From Mustelus asterias (lineage: Eukaryota), in assembly GCF_964213995.1 (NCBI RefSeq), contig NC_135830.1, positions 4,712,001 through 4,776,000 on the forward strand: 64,000 bases of DNA. Reading direction: 5' to 3'. A program made the translations under genes and the position numbers. Below are positions 2,946 through 55,157 of the stretch, in pieces (the stretch's first letter is position 1; every line of letters begins with the position of its first letter). Under the pieces are notes generated by a model that made no database searches, was not told the DNA's origin, and saw only the letters and a list, made by a program, of their open reading frames with translations.

Positions 2946-3316
2946 TCATTGAGAATAATTGGAAATGTTCACAAAACACGATTTACCGCTGGATTTATTA
3001 ACCGTTCTGTTGATGATCTTCAAAGGGATGGCTTCATGTCCCACCACACAGGAATAAGAAGTGCTGCTGTCCCACTCCTCTGCTGCAATGGACAACAGGC
3101 TGTACATGAAGAATGAGCGATTGCCATTCTCCGCCACCACCTCGGTGTTCTTGTAGTTCTCAGGATTCAGCGGCGTGTCATCGACGGTCCATTTGACGAA
3201 GATCTCTCTGGGAGAGAAACCTCTCACTAAGCAGCTGAGGGAGACGAATCTCTGAGCGGAGACTTCTTCTGCCGAGGGCAGGAGGACAGAGACGTACGGT
3301 TTCAGCGGATTTGGAT
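2946..3316 (-). CDS. IGHM: IgM heavy chain CH4 exon plus short secretory tailpiece ([13 protein letters not shown])
   Basis: [35 protein letters not shown]...[25 protein letters not shown]; acceptor GCAG at 3320-3317; internal G|GTAAA membrane-form donor at 2987/2986; TGA at 2948-2946. Confidence 0.95.
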
Positions 3317-3569
3317 CTGCAGAAAATGTTCATTAGATGTAAGCATACTGGAGAATTCCTGAGACAAAAGATGAAAGAAACATGCTTTGCAGCAAAATAC
3401 AAAACATTGCCATATTCCCCTCTGGTGACTGTTCTGTTTTCAAGCTGAGCGAGTGAATTCCTTCTCCCTGAGAAATTCTAGAGTTGAACTGGAAACTGGC
3501 ATTGTATGTTTGTATGTTTTTATCATGTCATTCGGCCCAACTGTTCAATGCTGGCATTTATTATTCACA

Positions 3570-4520
3570 GTAAGAAGTCTCACAACACCAGGTTAAAGTC
3601 CAACAGGTTTATTTGGGAGCAAATACCATAAGCTTTCGGAGCAATGCTCCTTCGTCAGATGGAGTGGTCTCTGTTCTCAAACAGGGCACAGACACAGAAA
3701 TCATTACAGAATACTGATTAGAATGCAAATCTCTACAGCCAGCCAGGTCTTAAATGCACAGACAATGTGGGTGGAGGGAGCATTCAACACAGGTTAAAGA
3801 GATGTGTATTGTCTCCAGACAGTACAGCTTGTGAAATTGTGCAAGTCCAGGAGTCAAGCTGTGGGGGTTACTGATAATGTGACATAAATCCAACATCCCG
3901 GTTCAGACCGTCCTCATGTGTGCTACGTAGCGTCCTCAGACGCTACGACAACGGATGAATGAACACCGCTCGACAATCACCAGGCAAGACTGTTCTCATC
4001 CTGTGGGGGAGCACTTCAGCAGTCACGGGCATTCAGCCTTGGATCTTCAGGTAAGCGTTCTCCAAGGCGGCCTTCACGACACACGACAGCGCAGAGTCAC
4101 TGAGCAGAAACTGATAGCCAAGTTCCGCACACATGAGGACGGTCTAAACCGGGATGTTGGATTTATGTCACATTATCAGTAACCCCCACAGCTTGACTCC
4201 TGGACTTGCACAATTTCACAAGCTGTACTGTCTGGAGACAATACACATCTCTTTAACCTGTGTTGAATGCTCCCTCCACCCACATTGTCTGTGCATTTAA
4301 GACCTGGCTGGCTGTAGAGATTTGCATTCTAATCAGTATTCTGTAATTTGATTTCTGTGTCTGTGCCCTGTTTGAGAACAGAGACCACTCCATCTGACGA
4401 AGGAGCATTGCTCCAAAAGCTTATGGTATTTGCTCCCAAATAAACCTGTTGGACTTTAACCTGGTGTTGTGAGACTTCTTACGGTGCTTACCCCAGTCCA
4501 ACGCCGGCATCTCCACATCA
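3570..4520. mobile_element. Penelope-like retroelement, 5'-truncated, with inverted pseudo-LTR and GIY-YIG C-terminal fragment
   Basis: ORF 3955-4182 (RMNEHR...VGEHFS...EQKLI...GLN); ~355-bp arms 3568-3923 and 4127-4484 inverted; flanking duplication CATTTATTATTCACA at 3555-3569 and 4519-4533. Confidence 0.88.
3626..3662 (-). ncRNA. Minimal type I hammerhead ribozyme motif (Penelope-associated)
   Basis: CCAT-CTGACGA-AGGAGC ATT GCTCC-GAAA-GCTT-ATGG. Confidence 0.7.
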
Positions 4521-4767
4521 TTTATTATTCACACCAGACACTTTCCATCTTGAAAGCAAATCCTGTCATTCCTTTCTGTTTCATATGCCTATCTTGATTT
4601 CCCTATAATTCATCACCTTTTGTCGCACAGCGCTCAGTTGAAGGAAGTACAAGTTGGCCCATCTAATTTGTCCACTAAATCAATCAAGTCCATCGGAAAG
4701 CTTCTCCTTTTATTGGCAACGTAAACAGACACAATGCATGACCTATTGCTTCAGTTTCGCCGCTCAC

Positions 4768-5076
4768 CTGTTTCCTTGTAGATGGATTTTCTCAAAGGAG
4801 TCGGCAGATCCTCGTGGCTCACCAAGCAGTCAAACACAGCTCCACTCAGCCAAGCTTGTGTCGAGATGCTTAAGTGGCTGCCCACGCTTTCTGGATCCTC
4901 TCCAAGCCGGACTGCAATCTCTGACGTCAAAGGCTTCGTTTCTTGGCTCCAGGACACCTTGACTCCATAAGGAGCATTAGCCACGATGCAGGTTAAGGTC
5001 ACGATCGCCTCCAGTAAAACCTGCTCTATTGTCGGAGGCAGCAGAGTGATTATGGGATCGCTGCACGTAGAATCAT
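4768..5076 (-). CDS. IGHM: IgM heavy chain CH3 exon
   Basis: [19 protein letters not shown]...W...[15 protein letters not shown]; acceptor ACAG, donor GTGAGC; 309 nt. Confidence 0.95.
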
Positions 5077-5529
5077 CTGTCAAACAGAAACGAAAATTAA
5101 TCCAAACATTATCTTCAGATTCAAATCACCGGTGTTCAGTTAACTCACTTTCAATGGGAATACATATTTGTTCTACTCATTCGCTTGGTATCGCGTAAAC
5201 GCCATTCTTATTTGAAGGACAGTGACTTAGAACAATTCCGGGAAACTCCATAATATTTCCTGCGTAGTTGCTCCCAGAGCGCCAGTTGAATCTCTGAAAT
5301 AAATGTCCCGTGTAACAAATGGAATGGATTTATGAGCACTTATGTTTCGGGCTGAATTTCGTTCGCCCCAAAATCAGGGGTTAAAGGATCATCGTATGAT
5401 TACAGCAAATAAGGTAGCTATTTAGTCTTCTAAAGCTTTTGCCTTTGAAGTCAGAGGTTGGAAAGGCAGCTTGTCCCATTACCACATCCATTCCCTGTAG
5501 TCCCTGTAGTCCCTGAATAACTGGAAATT

Positions 5530-6590
5530 GGCGAATGTGCTGTACTTGGAGCTCCAGATGGTTTTGCGTAAAATTAAAGCCTATTATTTCGGGATAACTC
5601 ATTGGCAAAGATAGAAGATTGGCTATCAAGCCGGAAAGAGAGTTGGCATCAATTCGTCTATTCGTGTTTGGCAAGGTGTAAAGAGGCGTGCACCATAGGG
5701 ACCATTGCTGGGGTCCAAATAATTTAGAAATTGTATGTGAATTGGATGGACGTGTTGAAGTGGTGGTGGCTTAATTTGCTACTGGCACAATTATAGCTTG
5801 AAAACTAAGTTATGCCGAGCAGGTAAGGAGATTACAAAAACATATAGATAGGTTAAGTGAGTGGGCTAAGATCTGTTAAATGGAGTGCAATGTGGGAAGC
5901 AATGACATTGTCCATTCTGGCAGGCGGAATAAAAAGATACATGTTATTCAAATGTTACCAGATTGTAGAGCTCTGAGGTGCAGATGAATTTTAATTTCGA
6001 AGTGCATGAATCACAAAAGGCTGCTATGCAGCTATAGTAACTAATTCGCAAATGTAATAAATGTTTTCATTGACTGCGAGTGGAATTCAATCCAAGAGCA
6101 GGATTGTTAAGTTTCAGGTGGTATGGGCAGTTAGTGAGACCACATCTGGAGCATTGTGTACACTATTAGTCTCCCTATATAAAGAGTTATGTTAACGTGT
6201 GATTAATAGTTCAGGGACGGTTTACTAGACTAATTCCTAAATTGGGTGGGCTGTCTTTTGAGGAAACATTGGAAGGGCGAGCCTTGCATTCACTGGATTT
6301 TGGAATAGTAAGAGTTGACTTGATTAAAACCTTGAATATCCTGAGCGATTTGAGAAGATTGATGTGGAGGAAATGCCTGACTCTGTGGGAGACTCTAGAA
6401 TTGAGAGTTACTGTGTGAAAACAAAGGGTTGCTGATTAAGGCACAGATGAGGATATTGTTTTTTTTATTCTCTCAGAGGGTCGCGATTATTTGGAACACC
6501 TCTTGAAAATGCAGTGGAAGCAGTGTCTTTTAATATTTTTAAGGCACAGCAAGACAGATTCTTGATAAACAAGGCAGCGAAAGGTTCACG
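5530..6590 (+). mobile_element. Old CR1 LINE fragment in the CH2-CH3 intron
   Basis: Degenerate RT/3' motifs (GTGAGACCACATCTGGAGCATTGTGT). Confidence 0.7.
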
Positions 6591-8393
6591 GAGGAGTCCC
6601 AGCCTCAACACATCTAGTGGAATGTACTGTTTTAAGGGATTTGTATCTGTACTGTAAAGATTAGAAACAAGCTGTTCAGGAATAAGTTCGTTTAATGTCG
6701 TCTTTCTGTGCAAGGAAACATAAAGCTAGATTTAGATGCACGCGAGACAGAGTTGTTCAAATGTGTGCGGGTTTTGGTTTCTATTCAAACTCTGATTCTA
6801 TTGTGCTTAGAATGGTTACAGCGTGAAAAGCTGACAGTTGCTTAGTAATCACTTTTTAGATTGAAGGGGTCTCTTTTGTTTTTAATTTAACTGGAAGCCA
6901 AAGAAGTTGGAGATAGGTCACTGGGGAGTGAACGCCGATCAACTCTACGGGAAAAATAAAGCTGGACAGGGCAAGGGGGCTGCAATAGGCAGACTTCCCA
7001 ATGAACCTGATAAAGTGAACAGGCAGCAGGTGAATTAGGACAGAGGGAAGGTCTTACAAAGACTGAGGTTAACGGAACAGAGACCAAGGTCCTGTTCAGG
7101 GGAATTCAAGGGAAAAGCAGGTAACTTATTCTGAGTTGAAGAGACAGTCGCAGTAACAAGATTTAAGATGGGAAGGCAGTCTGCGGAAGTAAATCAAACG
7201 TTCCATGCCATTTTCATGGAGTATGGAAAATGATAGTACAAGTAACTGTGAAGAATTCTTACAATAGTAAAGACAAATAAAAAATCCTAAAGAAAGCGAT
7301 GTAAAACCTGGATGCGGAATTCATTGTTAAGCTTTCTTCGAAACAGTAGTTTAGAATAACTGGAATGGTTTTGCAACGCAAACTGCTGGTGGAAACCAAT
7401 TTTTTGAAAGTCGATTTTAAAGCACTTTGGGAGAGGAGTTTGAAAACGCTGCTTTGACAATTACTGGGGAATTTGAGGCGAAATTCACAGAATGTCGCTT
7501 GGGTTCAGAGTGGATTACCCATTAATCTTTTATACCCAAGGGAATGCAAGCTTCATCTGTGAACTTATCATGCTGGGGCTTAAACTGAACACAGAAGTGG
7601 AATGACGTGAGAAATTGCAAGTGGAATCATGGACAATTTTAATAAAGGTTTGCAGGTATCTAATATCGTCCAATGAATTTCGGGGAAAACTGAAACCCAC
7701 GATCCTCAGTCATCATGCAGCATTGGAACAAAACATCGCCTCATTCTGTGAGGTAATGGAATCCAGAGCACTGAAGAATTCCATTCAGAAAGATCTGTTG
7801 TTACTTCCCTTCTGGATGTTTGAAAAGTGAGCTGACACCAGCAATGTACTAATGAGCAAGTATTGTATCCTGCCAATTGCCAACTTTGACATCAGACATT
7901 ATGCCGAAATCGGCTTCGTTGTTGTCACATTAAAATTCCCAGGGCAATGGGAAGAAAACCAGGCTAGGTCTTTCAGCTATTAAAGTGAAATACTGCAGGT
8001 GCCGGGAATCTGGAAAATAGACACAGAACGCTGGAAAACATCGACACATTTGATTGTTTCTTCGTCAAAATACGTTCCTCAACAAATGAGTGAAACAAAA
8101 GGCTTTTTCTGAGAGTTTTCTCCACAACAGAGAGATGCTAAATTGTCCACACTGCAATGAGCTCATCTCTAAATTAGACTGTGAGTATTTTGGGACAACC
8201 TGATGTTTGTAAAGACGCTGTAAGAAAGGAATGTACTGTATTTCCTTTTACATTGGAAGGGAAAAGGACCCGCACGATTGTAAAGGAAATGAATTAATGG
8301 TGGGAATTGCTTTCATTATTCCAATAAGAATCTTGCGTGTGACTGAGATTGGCGCTCCCTATCACCCCAAATTTCAAGGGTTGTGTCTCTTAC

Positions 8394-8705
8394 CTTGAGA
8401 TCTGCTGATGTTACGATTTTGAGTGAGCCCTTGATGAGTGACCTGGCAGGTATAGACCGCTTTTCTGAACCATTCCCCAGCGGGGACTGTGAGCCGGCTG
8501 CTCGCCGAGAAGTTCCCGTTCACGTTAAAGGCGGGGGAGGTTACAATTCCTGAATCTATGGGTTGTCCATTCTTCAGCCACTTCACCGTCATTGACTTTG
8601 GACAAAAATCAACGATGGAACAGACGAGGGTTGCAAGTCTGCTGCTTGTGATCTCTTCACTGGAACTCAACGTGAGGATTACAGTTGGATAATAGATCAC
8701 ACGAT
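8394..8705 (-). CDS. IGHM: IgM heavy chain CH2 exon
   Basis: [15 protein letters not shown]...LVCSIVDF...WLKNG...YTCQVTH; acceptor GAAG, donor GTAAGA; 312 nt. Confidence 0.95.
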
Positions 8706-9374
8706 CTTCAAGAAAATACATGTTATTGGCATTTAATCTTGTTGCAGACCAAACAATTTACAAACATAAGATAAAGGCCAAACAATTAAAAAATGTAGGT
8801 TGGTTGTCAAAACGACTGTAAAGCAGATCACTCGGTCCATCATTTCAATGCCAGAGTTTATGCTCCATACAAAATTCTTCTCGCCCTACTTTATCTGGCA
8901 GTATCAAAATAACTTTCTTTACATTTTCCCTCATGCATCTGTTCAGTTTCCTCTTCAGAGCATCGATGTAACTGCATCGACTTATTCGACCGCAATCAAA
9001 TCTGCCATGATCTTGTCACGTGGTGGGGGAAACTCGAGGGGTTGAATGACCTACACCTGTTCCGAACCACGTGTTCTGCGTTTCTAACGCCCCAACTGCT
9101 ACAAGTGTTACTTGACGGGTTGCATTTTTGGTGAGTAATTTTCTGAATTGCTAACCTGTAGTTTAAAATCATTCTGTTTTCTCCATTAGCTCTAGTTTTG
9201 GTAAACTGCTGACCACCTCGATTTCATCACACCTCAGAATTCTCTTCTGCAGAGAAAAGACCAACAACTTATTCACCCCTTATTGATATTATACATGATC
9301 AGTTCTGGTCTCATCGTAAATAGGCAAGCATCTACTCCATGGCCCCTGTATCAACTTCCCAATGTGGAAGCCAC

Positions 9375-9712
9375 AACTGTACATAGGATTCAAGGTGTGA
9401 CATGAAGGCACCAACTGTACACAATGCACCGCGTGTGATCTGGAGACCATAATTGTACACATGGCACTGTGTGGTCTGCAGACTAGAACTGTACACAATT
9501 CACTGGGAGCGATCTGCAGTCCAGAACTTTACACAACGCACTGAGTATGATCTGCAGTTCAAACCTGTACACAACGCACTGAGGGTGATCTGCAGACCGG
9601 AACTGTGCACAGTGCACTGACTATGCGAAGGGACTGAAACTGTACACAGTGCATGTGTGCGTTGAGGACACCGGAACAGTACATGGTGCAGAGTGTGATG
9701 AGGAGACTGCAC
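9375..9712. repeat. ~38-bp degenerate minisatellite (about 8-9 units) in the CH1-CH2 intron
   Basis: Unit such as AGAACTGTACACAACGCACTGAGTGTGATCTGCAGACC repeated. Confidence 0.8.
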
Positions 9713-9888
9713 TGAATGTCACAAGGAAAGTAGGATTATCCAGAGTAAACCAAGTATAAGTACACAGATTTCACACAATACAGACCTTCAATTCATAATC
9801 ATATACTCCAGAATTAGTACCTGTCTGCTTACAATTCACCCCCATAAAATCACCAACACCGAATCCACTGCATGTGTCTCAGACTAAC

Positions 9889-10188
9889 CTGGCATTTCCT
9901 TTTTCCAGGCCGACTCACTGCGTCGCACCTCGCAGTAAATTTTGCTGCTTCCTATATCAGACTCTTTTATGGTTAACTGGCTGCTCAGCGTGTGGGATCC
10001 CTTGTTGTTTAACACTGATGGGTACGTCCTCAATCCAGTGGTGATCGCCACTTGATTTTTCTTCCAGACAAGGCTAGTGATTTCTGGGAAATAGTCCATT
10101 GCCAAACAGCCGTAGATCATGGTACCAGCTGCGTTTGTTTGTTCACTGGAGGAGAACAGTCCATAGAGGGAGGGCGGAGACGGTGAGG
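9889..10188 (-). CDS. IGHM: IgM heavy chain CH1 exon
   Basis: [17 protein letters not shown]...[10 protein letters not shown]...WKK...IYCEVRR, typical of shark Cmu1; AG acceptor 10190-10189, donor GTTAGT; 300 nt, phase 1. Confidence 0.95.
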
Positions 10189-10229
10189 CTGCGAGAACAA
10201 AAAATCAATTGCACAGGTTAGACACTGTT

Positions 10230-16222: not shown

Positions 16223-16594
16223 CTGCAGTGACTGTCACTGCGGTTCCTGGTCCCCAGAAGTCGACGAAATTCGTCGCAGGTAATGATGTCTGCCATGCAC
16301 AGTAATAGATGGCGGTGTCTTCGCTCTTCAGGTTATTCATATCCAAAGTGAATATATTGGTTGAAAGCTCTTTGGACGCAACGAATCTATTCTGAATCCC
16401 TGGGGCGTACTTGTTGTTGGAGGAAGAAAGATAGAAAACCAACCACTCCAGCTCCTTTCCGGGAACGAGTCGGACCCAGTACATGTAAGCGTGAGAAAGA
16501 GGGAAGACGCCGGTTTTACAGGTCAGTCTCAGTGATCCTCCGGGTCGCCCGGTCGCTGCCTCCGGCTGAGTGAACACAACCTGCGTCTGGACAC
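16223..16594 (-). CDS. IGHV: Germline-joined IgH VDJ exon (VH + CDR3 [14 protein letters not shown] + [13 protein letters not shown])
   Basis: TTACAG acceptor; SLRLTC...WVR...LEW...EDTAIYYC runs directly into WGPGT with no intervening RSS; donor GTAAGC at 16222-16217; 372 nt in frame. Confidence 0.96.
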
Positions 16595-16720: not shown

Positions 16721-16766
16721 CGGATAAGAAAGTCAGCAACAAACTGAGAGAAATCGCCGAGCTCAT
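16721..16766 (-). CDS. IgH leader exon (MSSAISLSLLLTFLS-G; in-frame upstream ATG at 16778 adds MTRR)
   Basis: ATG at 16766-16764, hydrophobic signal peptide, phase-1 donor GTGAGT at 16720-16715, 126-nt intron to the V exon. Confidence 0.9.
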
Positions 16767-16853
16767 CCTTCTTGTCATTTGGAGGAAATGGTTTTGTCAA
16801 AAACTCAGTGAACAAACCAGCTCCCGGACTGTTGGATTCCCGTCCCAGTGAAC

Positions 16854-36342: not shown

Positions 36343-38883
36343 GGTGGTTGTCCTTTTATTTTCCCCACAAGTATTCAGTGTCGCGCAGTTCCGGCTTGTG
36401 AACCTAGGCAACAATAAAAATATTTCTCAAGTGTTGCCGCTCGACTGTTGTCAGGTGTTGTCAACATTATTTATTTAATGAATATTCATATCATACATAT
36501 CACATGGTATAATATATATTGATTTCAAATATGCAATTAAAGTTAAGAATTAGAGTCTTGGCTGGATGGGTTTGTGTGTCAGTTCTCCGATGCGTCCTCA
36601 TCTGAGACTGGGAAACAATCTCTCAGTATTCTGTCGGTTCAATAAGATTGCCTCTCAGTATTCTAAACTCCAGGGAATTTCAGCCCAATTTACACAGACT
36701 CTCATCCCAGGAGAACTCTCTCATCACAGGAACCCATCAGGGTTTCCAAATGAAGGGTAGCCTTTAAAAAAGAAGCATTGTGGATATCAAAAACGCACCG
36801 AATATTTCACACTTGCTCCCAACAAAATCCTGTATAAATGTAAGTTGGCGTTTTTATTCTTATACAGCAATCTGTTGGCAATAAGGACCAAAATGCCATT
36901 TCCCTTCCTATTGTTTGCTGCACCACCATGCTATCTTCCTGCGTTCCTTGTACAAACACACCCAAATCTCTTTCAACATAAAAGCTTATAACTAGGAAAG
37001 ACGATGGCCTAGTGGGATTAACGGGAGACTATTAATCCAGGACCTCACCCAATTTTATGGGATCCCGGTTTTGAATCCTGCCACGGCACGTTGTGCAATT
37101 TGTATTCAATAAAAACTATCTGGAATTAAGAATCTACTGATGACCATGAAACCATTGTCGATTGTCGGAAAAATAAACATGGAGTTCGGTAATGCGCTTT
37201 AGGGAAGGAAATCTGCCGTCGCTTATACGGCATGGCCAACATTGATTCCAGAGCTGCAGCAAAGCGGTTGACTCCAAACTGTCCCAGGGCAACCAGGATG
37301 GACCATAAATGCTGGCCAGCCAGCGACGCCCATTTCTAATGAATTAATAAAGAACTAGGTCACCTTTGCAAACATTGCCTGCTCTTTCTCCATTTACGAA
37401 CAAGAGAATATATTTTTGGGCAACATGGTGGCACTGCTGCCTCACAGCGCCAGGGACCCGGTTTTGATTCCCGGCATTGGTTACTGTCTGTGCAGAGTCT
37501 GCATGTTTTCCCCGTGTTGCGTGGGTTTCCTGCGGGTGCTCCTTCTTACTCCCACAGACTGAAAGATGTGCTGGTTAGGTGCATTTGCCATGCTAAATTC
37601 GCTCTCAATTTACCCGAGGAGGTGCCGGTTCTGCCGACGAGGGAATTGTCACAGTAACTTCATTGCGGTGTTAATGTAAGCTTAATTGTGCCACTAATAA
37701 AAAACCTTTAAATTGCTCAACATTATACCCGATGTGCTCCAACCACTGAGCCACGGAGCCAATTCCTGCGCCTCGTGCGGAGTTAGTGTATCATCATCAG
37801 TGGAGCGAAGAAGAGGTTGAATTTTCAGGTGGGTGATATTTGATGGATGTGGAAATATCCGAGGTGGAGAACAAGGAGTTAATCGATGCGATTTGAAAGA
37901 GGAAGGATTTGACATGTGTGACAGTTGCTTTTGTGGTAAATGTCTGCCGTGTCATTCTTCTTCAGAGTTTATTGCTGTTGTTACATCTCTGATTTTTCCA
38001 GCTCTGATACAATTCATCTCAGTGGTTGGAACACATCGGGTATAATGTTGGACAATTCGTTTACTGAAGAGTTAAATAAGAAGTTATTCACTACTTGCCT
38101 GGCAGTCCAACGCGGAACATGGCGCCGAGTCCTAACCACGGGACGCCAGGAAAGCAGATATCAGAGATTTGAAATTCGTTGATAACCATCTCTGTCTTCA
38201 CTGCTCCGTTTCAGGTCACTTTCGTTACTGACATTGTCACACAGTCATTCCAACATCATGTAACCAACTGAAGTAAATTATGTCTTCTTCCTTTATTTTC
38301 AGATACTTTCAACTCCAGAAATTCAGTACGTGCTGAGCAAAGTGCTCTGTTTAGTTAACAGTTTGTCATTAATTCCGGGCCATAGCGGTGGAAACATTGA
38401 CTGTGAACCACTAGACCACCCAGGCCGTACTATCACTGGCTCAATGTTGCCTTGCCCACCATTCCTGGTGTCATGAAATTCATCCTACCTTCTGATCTAT
38501 CACAGAAATTCCTTTTGTTCCTTTCACTGAGTGATTCCTGACTTTGCAATCAGAAAATACTGGGAACACTCAGTAGGTCGTTTCATTTCTTCGTGACAAA
38601 CGCGCAACTAATTCCAATACTCGAATCCTCTGAAATTAAAAGCATTTGGAAATGTTTCTGTGAAGGCAAAATACTGCGGATGCTGGAACCTGAACAAAAA
38701 TAAAAAAATGCTGGAAAATCTCAGCAGGTCTGACAGCCTCTGTAGAGAGAGAATAGAGCCAACATTTCGAGTCCGGAGCTCTGACGAAGGGTCATCCAGA
38801 CTTAAAACGTTGGGTCTATTCTCTCTCCACAGATGCTGTCAGGTTTGTTTAGATCTTGCAACCTTTTCTCTTTATGATGAAAG

Positions 38884-38955
38884 TATTTCTGCCGGAATCA
38901 AACGGGGGACCTTTCGCGTATAAGGCCAATGTGACAACCACTACACCACAGAAAC
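38884..38955 (-). pseudogene. tRNA-Val pseudogene
   Basis: GTTTCTGTGGTGTAGTGGTTGTCACATTGGCCTTATACGCGAAAGGTCCCCCG... on the minus strand; related copy at 59990-60060 (+). Confidence 0.65.
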
Positions 38956-40251
38956 ATTGCGATGCAATGATTCAAGGAAACTGGTTCCAACAATTGCCAA
39001 CAATAATTTGCATTTGAGTTGCATGGAATTCGTGTGATAACAAAGGTATTTCGCAAAGTTAATTAACTGGACATATAGCAGTGGTGAGATTCGAACACAC
39101 GCTTCAACTAATATTACTGTTCTGTAAGTAGTCTCACGGCACCAGGTTAAAGTCCAACAGGAAAGCTTGTGCTACCAAATAAACATGTTGGATTTTAACC
39201 TGGTGTTGTGAGACTACTTACTGTGCTTACCCTAGTCCAACGCCGGCAACTCCACACCATTACTGCCCTGAACTCTACCAGCAGAACCTATTGATGCCGT
39301 ATCTGGTGTTGCCAATGAATAGAGTCAATGGAGTAGAATTGGGTCACATGTTCCATTGTGCCTCCTCCACGATTGAATAAAGGCAGATCCATAGCCTCAA
39401 CTCCAATTTCCCAGTTTATCCCGATTGCCCTTCATTCAATTAGATTCCAACAGCTCTCCACCTCAACCTTCAACGTCTTCATCAACTGAAGATCCACAGA
39501 CCTCTGTGCGGCTACAGAATTGATGCAGGATGGCGCCCGAGCGAGGCTACCTCTTGCAAGCTGTGCCCTGCATACCTTCTAATTCTATCTTTCACTCTCG
39601 TTCTATGCTTCTAAAACTTCATTCTAACTATTTTAAAGTCTCCAACAATGCTTTAAATCAATTTCTTACAATCTAGCTTTGATTGGAATACTACATTCTG
39701 CACTCTCTCATTTCCTTCTCTATGAACGGTATGCTTTCTCTGTGAAGCACGTAAGAAACAATACTTTTCACTGTATGCTAATACATGTGATAATAAATCA
39801 AAGAATTCCAAAGATTCACAAGCCTTTGAGTGAAAAAATGTCTCCGTACCTCATTCAAAAATAGCTGAAACATCATCCAGAGAATATTAGCCCAGAGTAC
39901 CTTACTGAGGCACTTTTTGTCACCGTATAACCGTAACATCACTCACTTGCCATGGCAAATCCATCTAGCCTACATCAACTGCACCGTGAGTGTGACAGTC
40001 GAAGTAGAAAAGCAACAGTATGTCAGTGGCGACTTTGCTGAGGGCATTTTTTAAATAAATGGTGAAGAACAAATTAACATTTTGTCTGCTCCAATCCAGT
40101 TCATATGCAACACCGACCTAGAATCAGGGAAATTTTTTTTAAAATATTAATTTTGATTATGTTTCCACCTTATTTTGAATCGAGGAGCCCATCGTATATG
40201 AAATGAACATGTTAACTCCTCCAATCCAGGAACTCTGCTCATGACCAATGT

Positions 40252-40570
40252 ATCAAGTCTTTAAGAAACAAAACAACGTGAGTAGAGAGAGCATCAAGAC
40301 AGGCTAAAAAGATGTGTATTGTCTCCAGACAAGACAGCCAGTGAAACTCTGCAGGTCCAGGAATCTATTCCAACCATTATTCATGTAAATTGAGTTTGTC
40401 TCCTTATATGCCCTGTTTGTGAACATAATTCCCACTCACCTGAAGAAGGGGCTTGGAGCTCCGAAAGCTTGTGTGGCTTTTGCTACCAAATAAACCTGTT
40501 GGACTTTAACCTGGTGTTGTTAAACTTCTTACTGTGTTTACCCCAGTCCAACGACGGCATCTCCACATCA
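40252..40570. mobile_element. Short Penelope-like insertion with hammerhead motif (40437-40473, +)
   Basis: Flanking duplication TCATGACCAATGT at 40239-40251 and 40568-40580; CAC-CTGAAGA-AGGGGC TTGGA GCTCC-GAAA-GCTT-GTG. Confidence 0.75.
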
Positions 40571-41591
40571 TGACCAATGTGACCAGCCGAGAATATCAGA
40601 TTGCAATGTAAATACTTGTTTTGTAGAATTTTAATTCTGTTGAATACCTTACCCATGTGGCAGAGTCATTGATCTAACATAAGATTCAGAAAGTAACATT
40701 TGCCCCGAATTTTATCTCTGTCTCCATGACTGCAGTTGCCGAATATTATTCAAGTATTGGGCAAGTGTAAGTGCCGCATGGCTGTGAAATAATGTGATGC
40801 CTTAATATTTAATAACACTTAGCGATGTGACAGCTGCTTTGAAAAGGTTTTGTCAGTTTTTTTGAACACTATAGTCAGTATCCTTCAGGAACACAGGTGA
40901 CATATGGAAGTGTTTAAAATTTGATGCGTGTCCACAGATTCTGCCAAACCTGCTGAGAATTTCCACCATCTGATGCGTGTATTATAAATAAAGGTTTTGT
41001 CAGAACATAAAACACACCGCAAGACGGCAATGATAAATGAAATAGTCCCACAAGCTGTTCACGCGTAACTTTCAATTTCCAAAACACACCAATCTCATCA
41101 TTGCTGATCCTGTGAAACTTATATAAAACACGGCAGGCATTCTTCTCTCAAAGAAACTCAAATGTGAATTATCTGCTCTCAATCTCAGGACGTTGCAATT
41201 ATAAAAACAGCATTCTGGTGAAAGTTTAGCTCAGTCCTCATTCCACTGATTATTGCCGACTTGCTGTGTATTTCCCTCGTTGAACACATTTCAGGTTGGG
41301 ACAGACAAATTCCTGATCTATCTGAGAAAGAAGGGGAGTGTGCAGGATAATGGCAACCCAAGATCAAACATGGGTTAAAGTTTCGAGTTCAGTTATTGAG
41401 TTTAATAATATTTGAAATATATAAATTGTTACAAATAATATGTTAGAGATAAATGTTCAATAAATTAACGTCGGCTAACAGCAGAGGCAGAAACACACGA
41501 TAAGCTTTTTTTAGTGTTGCCCAAGGACTCAGTGACACTCAAAACCGAAGAGACAATGAAAGCAGATGGAGAGAAAAAAAGGTGAAATCAC

Positions 41592-41665
41592 CGACCCTGG
41601 ATGGATTCGAACCACCAATCTTTCGGTTAACAGCCGAACGCGCTAACCAATTGCGCCACAGAGAC
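41592..41665 (-). tRNA. tRNA-Asn(GTT), near-canonical
   Basis: GTCTCTGTGGCGCAATTGGTTAGCGCGTTCGGCTGTTAACCGAAAGATTGGTGGTTCGAATCCATCCAGGGTCG; a few substitutions; T-run terminator. Confidence 0.85.
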
Positions 41666-44559: not shown

Positions 44560-44598
44560 AGTTTTTGTACGAGTGTTAAGGCTCGATGTAACGTGGTG
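44560..44598 (-). other. 23-spacer recombination signal sequence of the TCR V
   Basis: Heptamer CACCACG (non-consensus, CAC kept) + exactly 23 nt + nonamer ACAAAAACT. Confidence 0.75.
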
Positions 44599-44906
44599 CT
44601 TCATCGCCGCGCAGTAATACACGGCTGAGTCAGAAATCTGAGTGTCTGTGATGTTCAAAAGGATGTTTGTGTTCATTTTATCCTGTACAGCAGAAAACCG
44701 CTTTCCAAATGTAGGCGCGTTCTCTTCATTACCAGCAGTATGTCTGACCAGCATGTACTGATGGCCCTGTCCCGAGTACTGTACGTACCAATATAGGTAA
44801 GCTGCTGTGTATGTGGTGGGGTAGTGACAGGACAACATCAGGGGACTCCCTTCACTCACTGCTACTACTGTGGGCTTTTGGAAAAGTTTATCCAGCTGGC
44901 TCTGCG
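44599..44906 (-). CDS. T-cell receptor alpha/delta-type V gene segment, unrearranged (functional or pseudo)
   Basis: Pyrimidine tract + CCAG acceptor; open frame QSQLDKLFQKPTVVAVSEGSPLMLSC...YLYWYVQY...RFSA...SDSAVYYCAAM; followed by an RSS. Confidence 0.85.
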
Positions 44907-45099
44907 CTGGAAAAAATAACAGAATGTGACAAACATAACTCTTAGATGTGTTTTTGATTTAAAATGAAATACGTTTTGAGCACAATTTTTCTCTCTCTCG
45001 AACGCATACACTCTTACAGTCAAAACTACACACATTATCTCTCCCTCTCTTTCTGTCACATACAATCACAAAAAGATATTCTCTCTTTCGCCACATAGG

Positions 45100-45261
45100 T
45101 TCCCTCCTACAGACAAAAACAGGTGCAGTTACACACCGACACGCACAGAAACTCACAAAACGCAGGGACACAAACAAAGACACACAGACATCCACACATA
45201 GTCAGGCACGCGCAGACACACAGCCAAAAACATATGCACAGACAGACAGACAGACAGACAC

Positions 45262-45301
<40 letters not shown>

Positions 45302-45310
45302 AAAACACAC
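45100..45310. repeat. (CA)n/(CAGA)n microsatellite and CA-rich tract
   Basis: Direct inspection; also (GT)n(GA)n at 45980-46020. Confidence 0.9.
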
Positions 45311-45705
45311 TTAGACAGATATACAAATAATAACGCGGGCTCTTATTCACTAATCTACTGAAATTTAGCGATGGACTGCATTCCGTGAGTGAAATTAAAA
45401 TGGGGGAATGTTCAGAGATTTATTTCCTGAGCTAACTGGCCCCAGACGATTAACGTTGCAATTTTCTTCTGGGTACATTCATCAGCCAAGGCTGCCCTTC
45501 TCGGGGAAGCAAAACCCCTCCCCCAGACCGGCCGTTCTGACTGAGATAGTTCAGTTTGATTTTCCATTAAATGGACTCGGGGCATTCATGGGTCCAAGAG
45601 CAAAACTCGAGGAGCCAGGCCTCCCCAATGAGGGGAATAAATATTAGAGGAAAATCGAAAAAACATCAACGAAATAAAACGGTGATAATCGCCCGAAATA
45701 CTCAC

Positions 45706-45751
45706 TCGTTTGAAGGATCATGAGCAAATGTAATAGGTTGGCGGATAGTGT
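45706..45751 (-). other. Candidate leader exon for the TCR V, expected start codon absent
   Basis: (T)LSANLLHLLMILQT then phase-1 GTGAGT donor compatible with the V exon; ACA where ATG would be expected; upstream in-frame TAA. Confidence 0.4.
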
Positions 45752-52338: not shown

Positions 52339-52537
52339 AATTTCTGCTGTTTTGAATTGGACAAGGTACTGGTTCTGTAAATTTATTTTCCGTGTACACG
52401 GCGGGATTGCTTCATATGGGCTTTGGGTTGAGAACCTGAACACATTCTAACGCCATAGCAGGCTCACAAGTAAATCAAAACATTTTCAATGGCTGACTCT
52501 GCTTGCAGACACGAATTGAGAGGACCTCATTCCTTCG

Positions 52538-55157
52538 ACAGAGGCCCTATGGGTGGAGCTGAGAAACAGGAAAGGTATGACCACATCAATGGGCTTGTAT
52601 TATAGACCACCCAATAGTCAGCGAGAATTGGAGGAGCAAATCAGCGGAGAGATAGCAGACAACTGCAAGAAACACAAAGTTGTGATAGTAGGAGATTTTA
52701 ATTTTCCACATATAGATTGGGACTCGCATACTGTTAAAGGTTTAGACGGGGTAGAGTTTGTAAAATGTGTTCAGGAGAATTTTCTACATCAGTATATAGA
52801 GGTGCCAACTAGAGAGGATGCGATATTGGATCTCCTATTGGGAAATGAGTTAGGGCAGGTGATGGATGTGAGTGTGAGGGAACACTTTGGATCCAGTGAT
52901 CATAATGCCATTAGTTTCAACCTGATCGTGGAGAAGGATAGACCTGGTCCTCGGGTTGAAGTTCTGAACTGGAAAAAGGCCAAATTTGATGAAATGAGAA
53001 GGGATCTGGGAAGTGTGGATTGGCACAGGCTGTTCTCTGGTAAGGATGTAAATGGAAAGTGGGAGGCCTTCAAAGGAGAAATTTTGAGAGTGCAGAGTTT
53101 GTATGTTCCTGTCAGGATTAAAGGCAAAGTAAATAGGAATAAGGAACCTTGGTTCTCGAGGGAGATTGTAACACTGATTAAGAGGAAGAGAGAGTTGTAT
53201 GAAATGTACAGGCAGCAAGGAACAGATCAGACGCTCGAGGAGTATAAAAAGTGCAAGAAGCTACTTAAGAGGGAAATCAGGAGGGCAAAAAGAAGACATG
53301 AGGTTGCTTTGGCAGACAGAGTGAAGGAAAATCCAAAGAGCTTCTATAGGTATGTTAGGAGCAAAAGGATAATGAGGGATAAAATTGGTCCTCTTGAAGA
53401 CCAGAGTGGTAGACTGTGTATGGAACCACAAGAGATAGGGGAGATACTAAATGGGTTTTTTGCATCCGTATTTACTGAGGAAACCGGCAAGGAGTCCACG
53501 GAAATAGGTCAAACTGGTAGGGAGGACACGGAACCATTACAGATTAAAGGGGAGGAGGTGCTTGCTGTCTTGAGGCAAATCAGAGTGGATAAATCCCCAG
53601 GACCGGACAGGGTATTCCCACGGACCTTGAGGGAAGCTAGTGTTGAACTTGCAGGGGCCCTGGCAGACATATTTAAAATGTCAGTATTCACGGGGGAGGT
53701 GCCGGATGATTGGAGGATGGCTCATGTTGTTCCGTTGTTTAAAAAAGGTTCCAAAAGAAATCCCGGAAATTATCGGCCAGTAAGTTTGACGTCGGTGGTG
53801 GGCAAGTTATTGGAAGGTGTGATAAGGGATAGGATCTACAAATATTTGGATAGACAGGGACTTATTAGGGAGAGTCAACATGGCTTTGTGCGTGGTAGGT
53901 CATGTTTGACCAATCTATTAGAGCTTGTCGAGGAGGTTACCAGGAAAGTGGATGAAGGGAAGGCGGTGGATGTTGTCTACCTGGATTTCAGCAAGACCTT
54001 TGACAAGGTCCCTCATCGGAGGTTAGTTAGGAAGGTTCAGTCGCTGGGTATACATGGGGAGGTAGTAAATTGGATAAGACACTGGCTCAATGGAAGAAGC
54101 CAGAGAGTGGTTGTGGAGGATTGCTTCTCTGAGTGGAGGCCTGTGACTAGTGGTGTGCCGCACGGATCGGTGTTGGGTCCATTGTTGTTTGTCATCTATA
54201 TCAATGATCTGGATGATAATGTGGTAAATTGGATCAGCAAGTTTGCTGATGATACAAAGATTGGAGGTGTAGTGGACAGTGAGGAAGGTTTTCAAAGCTT
54301 GCAGAGGGATTTGGACCAACCAGAAAAATGGGCTGAAAATGGCAAACGGAATTTAACGCAGACAAGTGTGAGATATTGCACTTTGGAAGGACAAACCAAA
54401 GAAGAACGTACAGGGTAAATGGTAGGACTCTGAAGAGTGCAGTTGAACAGAGGGATCTGGGAATACAGGTACAGAATTCCCTAAAAGCGACGTCACAGGT
54501 GGATAGGGTCGTAAAGAGTGCCTTTGGTACATTGGCCTTTATAAATCGGAGTATCGAGTATAAAAGTTGGAGTGTTATGGTAAGGTTATATAAGGCATTG
54601 GTGAGGCCGAATTTGGAATATTGTGTATAGTTTTGGTCACCTAGTTACAGGAAGGATGTAAATACGATTGAAAGAGTGCAGGGAAGGTTCACAAGAATGT
54701 TGCCGGGACTTGAGAAGCTGAGTTACAGAGAGAGATTGAATAGGTTGGGACTTTATTCCCTGGAGCGTAGAAGATTGAGGGGAGATTTGATAGAGGTGTA
54801 TAAGATTTTGATGGGTATAGATAGAGTGAATGCAAGCAGGCTTTTTCCGCTGAGGCTAGGGGAGAAAAAAACCAGAGGGCATGGTTGAAGGGTGAAAGGA
54901 GAAAAGTTTAAAGGGAATATTAGCGGGGGCTTCTTCACGCAGAGAATGGTGGGAGTGTGGAATGAGCTGCCGGATAAAGTGGTAAATGCGGGGTCACTTT
55001 TAACATTTAAGAAAAACTTGGACGGGTTCATGGATGAGATGGGTGTGGAGGGATATGGTCCAAGTGCAGGTCAGTGGGACTAGGCATAAAATGGTTCGGC
55101 ACAGACAAGAAGGGCCAAAAGGCCTGTTTCTGAGCTGTTTTTCTATGCTTCTATGCT
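52538..55157 (+). mobile_element. CR1 LINE, young 5'-truncated copy (partial APE endonuclease + RT)
   Basis: 621-aa ORF with YRPP, GDFNFP, SDH, KSPGPD, NYRPVSL, QHGF, FADD; frameshift ~54340, stops at 54628 and 54886; (TTCTATGC) tail. Confidence 0.93.

Follow-up and report, generated by a model that had tools for sequence, protein, structure and literature searches.

TCR alpha/delta-type V exons have been described between the IgH clusters in the antigen-receptor complex of elasmobranchs (Flajnik et al. 2025, PMC12227049). In Table S1 of that paper the white shark IgM gene (minus strand) ends at 14,950,866 and a TCRadV segment (minus strand) starts from 14,979,261. The segment lies 28.4 kb upstream of IgM and is co-oriented with it, as in the stretch of 64,000 nucleotides analyzed here (the window; positions 4,712,001-4,776,000 of the 20.4-Mb contig C71). 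The likeness is one of layout. Shark TCR loci have been described as translocons (PMC12227049, PMC6795676), and Ig/TCR hybrids such as TAILV and NAR-TCR have been explained by close linkage together with interlocus recombination in the course of evolution (PMC12227049). Germline-joined Ig genes are known as well. The germline joints of the nurse shark showed little TdT activity (Lee et al. 2000, PMC2193156), and somatic TCR-alpha joints of this species mostly carry N/P bases (PMC5931798). The IgM gene of the window is a germline-joined gene too, as in the sharks of PMC2193156.

An earlier sequence-only reading had described an open TCR-type V segment, with a 23-RSS facing the IgM gene, about 28 kb upstream of IgM, co-oriented with it and located among tRNA repeats. 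This description was correct. The features of the window were as follows:

2946..10190, minus strand: exons C-mu1 to C-mu4 of IgM, approximate bounds (four Pfam C1-set domains)
16223..16594, minus strand: IgM VDJ exon, pre-joined and in frame, with no RSS and no free D
16721..16778, minus strand: IgM leader exon, with the leader ATG at 16778
33004..41665, no strand assigned: tRNA genes Lys, Cys, Ile and Asn (ARAGORN), a repeated block between IgM and V
44560..44598, minus strand: 23-RSS with the heptamer CACCACG (44598-44592), a 23-nt spacer and the nonamer ACAAAAACT (44568-44560)
44599..44906, minus strand: TCR alpha/delta-type V exon, open frame with Cys/Trp/Cys intact (Pfam V-set, PDB matches, tree)
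44907..45705, minus strand: leader intron, GT...AG, phase 1, with the AG acceptor at 44908-44907
45706..45748, minus strand: leader exon, beginning with CTA and without a start codon

IgM and V lie on the same strand, and the leader ATG of IgM is located 27.8 kb downstream of the RSS of V. Besides the IgM VDJ exon the window contained no recognizable D or J and no second V, as had been stated before. Mobile-element sequences were present on the plus strand, namely a LINE endonuclease-reverse transcriptase frame of 632 codons (52520-54418) and a hAT dimerisation fragment (27062-27559).

The V exon matched the Pfam V-set domain (E 1.7e-18) and the conserved Cys, Trp and Cys were present. Its top single-domain PDB matches were TCR alpha chains with about 58 bits, and the antibody multi-domain constructs among the matches listed reached about 25 bits per domain. 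In a tree of 67 rows the family of the segment was a clade by itself (100/100) and lay outside the VH clade (100/98). It adjoined Vs of gar and trout and the array Vs, with a weak support of 81/77 at an open fork under midpoint rooting. The possibility that the segment groups with non-TCR IgSF domains was thus not borne out. The RSS begins 12 nt past the second Cys (9–13 nt in the array Vs). A CAC with a 23-spaced nonamer (at most one mismatch) is expected by chance 0.45 times per window (100 simulations) versus two observed. The motif by itself is therefore weak, and it is the position at the end of the V that makes the 23-RSS real. The segment has a split leader, a 3' 23-RSS and constant genes in cis, and its heptamer is non-consensus. 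By domain, tree and PDB matches it is classified as a TCR alpha/delta V.

The segment had been called a lone V, which does not hold beyond the borders of the window. Left of it, TCR-type Vs were located at C71:4,708,233 (3.5 kb) and 4,704,260 (7.5 kb, frameshifted), and 40–45 kb upstream of the V three further ones were found at 4,796,863 (stop), 4,800,045 (stop) and 4,801,384. Contig C71 bears many IgM clusters, C-delta genes at 7.14, 11.04 and 12.27 Mb and a J-alpha array with C-alpha at 18.39–18.43 Mb. Annotation of the flanks for TRAV/TRDV, TRDC and TRAC, as the sequence-only reading had proposed, hence yielded all three kinds of element on this contig. Since V groups flank the window IgM on both sides and C-delta and C-alpha are on the same contig, the IgM gene sits within the TCR alpha/delta V field, one of the two options considered before. 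The other option, an orphon V far from its locus, was rejected in view of the cognate C-delta and J-alpha/C-alpha in cis.

C-alpha was found as two genes that differ from each other and have a J array each (C71:18.42–18.43 Mb and C546:240–242 kb), and no C-delta match was detected near either of them. Word-index protein searches for full-length TCR chains gave no match. The search for C-alpha with Pfam PF09291 was negative, a profile that was silent in the controls too, and a gapped J-alpha pattern gave 0 matches even though J segments exist.

The IgM gene had been regarded as complete. Its VDJ exon is pre-joined without RSS or D, and its secretory tail is seven residues short and lacks the penultimate Cys when compared to two paralogues. 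The TM exon is located just left of the window. Apart from the duplicate, no other VH exceeds 72% identity with the VH of this gene. A search of the 344 kb around the window was negative for D, J-delta and C-delta. Some of the 28 VH loci inspected belong to IgM clusters that are partly joined (V-D).

The V segment belongs to a family of at least 24 loci with 65–100% identity, the next sequences being at about 43% (genome search, 150 of 1658 candidates scored). These loci represent 17 distinct sequences, and six of them are located on C71. Stops or frameshifts were found in 19 of the 24 V exons, leaving five open. None of the 22 alignable leaders starts with ATG; 19 carry ATA and three, including the window copy, CTA. 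The leader donor GT was lost in nine of these 22 copies, among them two of the five open ones. The sole in-frame ATG of the window leader is internal (45721) and yields a stub of five residues, and no in-frame ATG was found upstream in the window copy. The window leader therefore does not encode a signal peptide behind an ATG. It has also drifted further, from ATA to CTA and from Leu to His in the hydrophobic core. The family heptamer is CACCACG in 20 and CACCATG in four of the 24 copies. Our heptamer survey drew on a motif search of the fetched stretches, which gave 43 open Vs followed by a good nonamer, including six rows of identical copies. Here, CACCACG occurred in 0 of 40 non-family Vs, which use CACACTG, CACAGTG, CACAGAG or CACGCTG instead. 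The dN/dS values of 11 chosen pairs were about 1 (0.53–2.71, with the minimum versus the most diverged copy), based on about 100 codons and non-independent pairs.

The window V is likely a pseudogene, since no ATG is found in 22 leaders, the heptamer is aberrant and dN/dS is close to 1. The ATG and the consensus heptamer were probably lost once, ahead of the amplification of the family. The open exon, the intact splice sites and the RSS-critical CAC speak against a dead segment, which may still rearrange on rare occasions. Could it then be a functional TCR alpha/delta V of low usage, whose translation begins at a codon other than ATG or in an upstream exon that escaped notice, and which rearranges over megabases by inversion? 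The intact GT/AG, CAC and nonamer and the open exon would agree with this, as would the presence of C-alpha and C-delta on the same contig. Moreover, ATA at the leader start was also found in contigs of two other organisms, so the non-ATG start is old. However, 19 of the 24 copies are broken, close copies show no sign of purifying selection, and the leader has drifted even in its hydrophobic core. We therefore regard a functional V as improbable. In addition, 2.38 Mb separate the V from the nearest C-delta and 13.66 Mb from C-alpha, and each of them is on the opposite strand. Still far less credible is a V that is part of the IgM cluster and recombines with the D or J there to form a TCR-V/IgM chimera. 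Only its orientation, shared with IgM, and the 23-RSS facing IgM speak for it. With its VDJ joined beforehand, the IgM gene offers no 12-RSS, so the V is without a partner there, and a D was not found in the surrounding 344 kb. The family also has copies that are situated downstream of the nearest C-mu4 match or opposite to it. Use of the V by the IgM cluster was rejected because of the missing 12-RSS; with no free 12-RSS left, the window IgM would not be served by this V. We are thus fairly confident that the segment is a TCR alpha/delta V without a start codon, a likely pseudogene. It would stand beside IgM because in this animal, an elasmobranch judging by its genes, TCR V groups, IgM clusters and D-J-C-delta cassettes interleave on one chromosome, probably through segmental duplication and RAG activity in germ cells.

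The block of the window recurs in inverted orientation at C71:10.89–11.02 Mb with 97.9–99.4% identity over at least 113 kb. Mirrored VH and C-mu4 matches with equal scores suggest a duplicate of about 300 kb. The tRNA block recurs here as well. When compared to the window copy, the duplicate carries an extra repeat of 18 kb, an inverted insertion of 152 bp and an extra psiV. The linkage of V and IgM is found again in this structurally different copy (10.95–11.01 Mb), which speaks against a misassembly between IgM and V. A misassembly between 17 and 44 kb, which the sequence-only reading had named as a possible cause of the linkage, was therefore rejected. The duplicate may represent the other haplotype placed on the same contig. 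The 152-bp insertion (C71:10,998,853-10,999,005) is located within the duplicate IgM VH. It is an exact inverted copy of the gene's own promoter-leader-intron stretch (window 16847-16696), replaces 17 bp and leaves the frame open.

Homology between both copies stops at C71:11,023,768. At this point the coding end of the psiV, trimmed by 4–5 nt, meets a D-delta trimmed by 3–4 nt, with an overlap of 1 nt and no N bases. The 23-RSS of the D, six J-delta matches and C-delta follow. The unjoined V parent is the psiV at 4,704,260 in the window's copy, which has kept its own 23-RSS, and this RSS occurs once in the assembly. The unjoined D-J parent cassette is located on contig C90 and is 100% identical over 661 bp from the joint. 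The breakpoints accordingly lie at the RSS coding ends of two identifiable trimmed parents, as in RAG joints. The assembly contains the joint itself a single time, and a search for the reciprocal signal joint was negative. The duplicate contains, all co-oriented, a 99% copy of the window V (71 kb from the joint), IgM, psiVs, D, J and C-delta. Judged from this order, the joint encloses the IgM gene in a V...D-J-C-delta unit. Contigs listed from two further public samples match the D-J side exactly. They begin at the joint and lack the V side, in agreement with the unjoined form. None of the contigs listed from four public runs bridged the joint, in a comparison that comprised short-read contigs only and was blind to long-range contiguity. 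We consider the V-D-delta joint of the duplicate to be probably germline.

C-delta genes were searched with the C-terminal part of the basking-shark C-delta P0028, since V matches swamped the search with whole P0028. All 47 candidates were scored. In total, 19 C-delta exons and 19 TM exons without internal stops were found, and the same search returned two C-alpha TM exons. Among 12 C-delta exons compared (89.6–100% identical) eight were distinct. On small contigs many copies recur identically in twos or threes, so that the copy numbers may be inflated about twofold. The C-delta exons sit in D-J-C cassettes among IgM clusters, and the segments found ahead of D-delta in these cassettes are NAR-V, supporting V-delta and TAILV-like ones. 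The state of the last D could be read in ten cassettes: three were free, six were joined to a V and one to an IgM D1. The contig of an eleventh cassette ended before its D, and this cassette was left uncounted. One junction was common to three contigs, although divergence among their C-delta reaches 5.6%; this joint at least thus predates duplication. At C138:217,400-218,470 an IgM VH with an intact RSS is followed by its D1 fused to D-delta, J-delta and C-delta. In the assembled DNA this appears as a fixed Ig/TCR hybrid gene, and a probable type of its IgM parent was identified among the VH loci inspected. The 5' RSS of D-delta had 11 exact matches, nine before a free D and two in head-to-head signal joints. 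These perfect 12-RSS/23-RSS signal joints contain the RSS of a TCR V (C71:14,376,803) and of a NAR-V (C110:113,696).

The interleaved V groups, IgM clusters and D-J-C-delta cassettes were likely spread over the chromosome by segmental duplication. RAG in germ cells would have made the coding joints and duplication would then have spread the products. In the duplicate, the inherited joint would have put V-IgM-psiV directly before D-J-C-delta. For the wider proposal we see about even chances: instead of forming a single translocon, TCR-delta would be organized in Ig-like D-J-C-delta miniclusters (at least four, perhaps around ten per haploid genome) among IgM clusters. RAG would still join them in germ cells, fixing V-D-delta genes, the IgM VH-D/TCR-delta hybrid, signal joints and an IgM gene inside a TCR-delta unit. 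Alternatively, at the joint of the duplicate and at some others the assembler could have captured haplotype switches or rearrangements of somatic T cells, and the number of C-delta could largely reflect uncollapsed haplotypes. The V and its neighbours would still be real in this case. Both parents and the product are present in one assembly, the joint of the duplicate is single-copy, and one type of D cassette is found unjoined, coding-joined and signal-joined. Together with the many copies that are 100% identical across small contigs, these findings would suit such captured rearrangements. We nevertheless regard them as rather unlikely. The three joints with both parents identified need no N bases and fit the nurse-shark germline joints better than the somatic TCR-alpha joints. 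A joint from a single cell would, as we expect, rarely be built into a 20-Mb contig. Furthermore, one junction is shared by three diverged cassettes, the eight distinct C-delta, with three C-delta on one contig, exceed two alleles, and the duplicate differs by its 18-kb repeat, the 152-bp insertion and the extra psiV. A germline origin is likely.

The intermixing of Ig and TCR loci, to which the sequence-only reading had related the V, is real. It is not new, since a V beside IgM is an already known layout (PMC12227049). The same reading had overlooked this publication as well as the probable pseudogene state of the V and the pre-joined IgM. More telling than the V, which is ordinary in itself, are its surroundings with the RAG-joined duplicate and the multiple C-delta cassettes. 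The TCR alpha/delta locus is presented as a translocon in PMC12227049, whereas 19 C-delta exons in D-J-C cassettes were found here. The table of that paper gives one TCR-delta constant model (stingray) and one IgWV-TCRD (catshark). A second C-alpha and fixed V-D-delta joints set the present loci apart from those described there. The germline-joined shark Ig genes of PMC2193156 are alike in their RAG-type joints with trimmed ends and little sign of TdT. However, the joints considered there are V-J joins of Ig light-chain genes, whereas the joints found here belong to TCR-delta and bring a V block and a separate cassette together; one of them connects an IgM D1 to D-delta. Somatic trans-rearrangement of IgM or IgW V with TCR-delta, TAILV and NAR-TCR (cited through PMC12227049 and PMC5931798) likewise bring IgM V together with D-J-C of TCR-delta. 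Such trans-rearrangements are made per cell, whereas the IgM VH-D1/D-delta-J-C-delta gene on C138 is fixed in assembled DNA. No literature report of many C-delta genes or of fixed IgM/TCR-delta hybrids was found, and Deiss 2019, Ott 2021 and Criscitiello 2006 and 2010 may already contain them.

The surroundings of the V bear on the origin of Ig/TCR hybrids such as TAILV and NAR-TCR. With parents, coding joints and signal joints available base by base in one assembly, the idea of interlocus recombination becomes directly testable. Germ-cell RAG joining of miniclusters, if true, would be a mechanism by which Ig and TCR loci intermix. With several open C-delta genes, one would in turn have to ask by what means a gamma-delta T cell keeps to a single delta chain.

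Other TCR V segments of the assembly were found in multiple copies as well. One of them encoded an identical protein in all six copies fetched and gave the same score at 13 places. On C71, near-identical TCR V segments are arranged in tandem with a spacing of about 2.45 kb (19.363–19.379 Mb).
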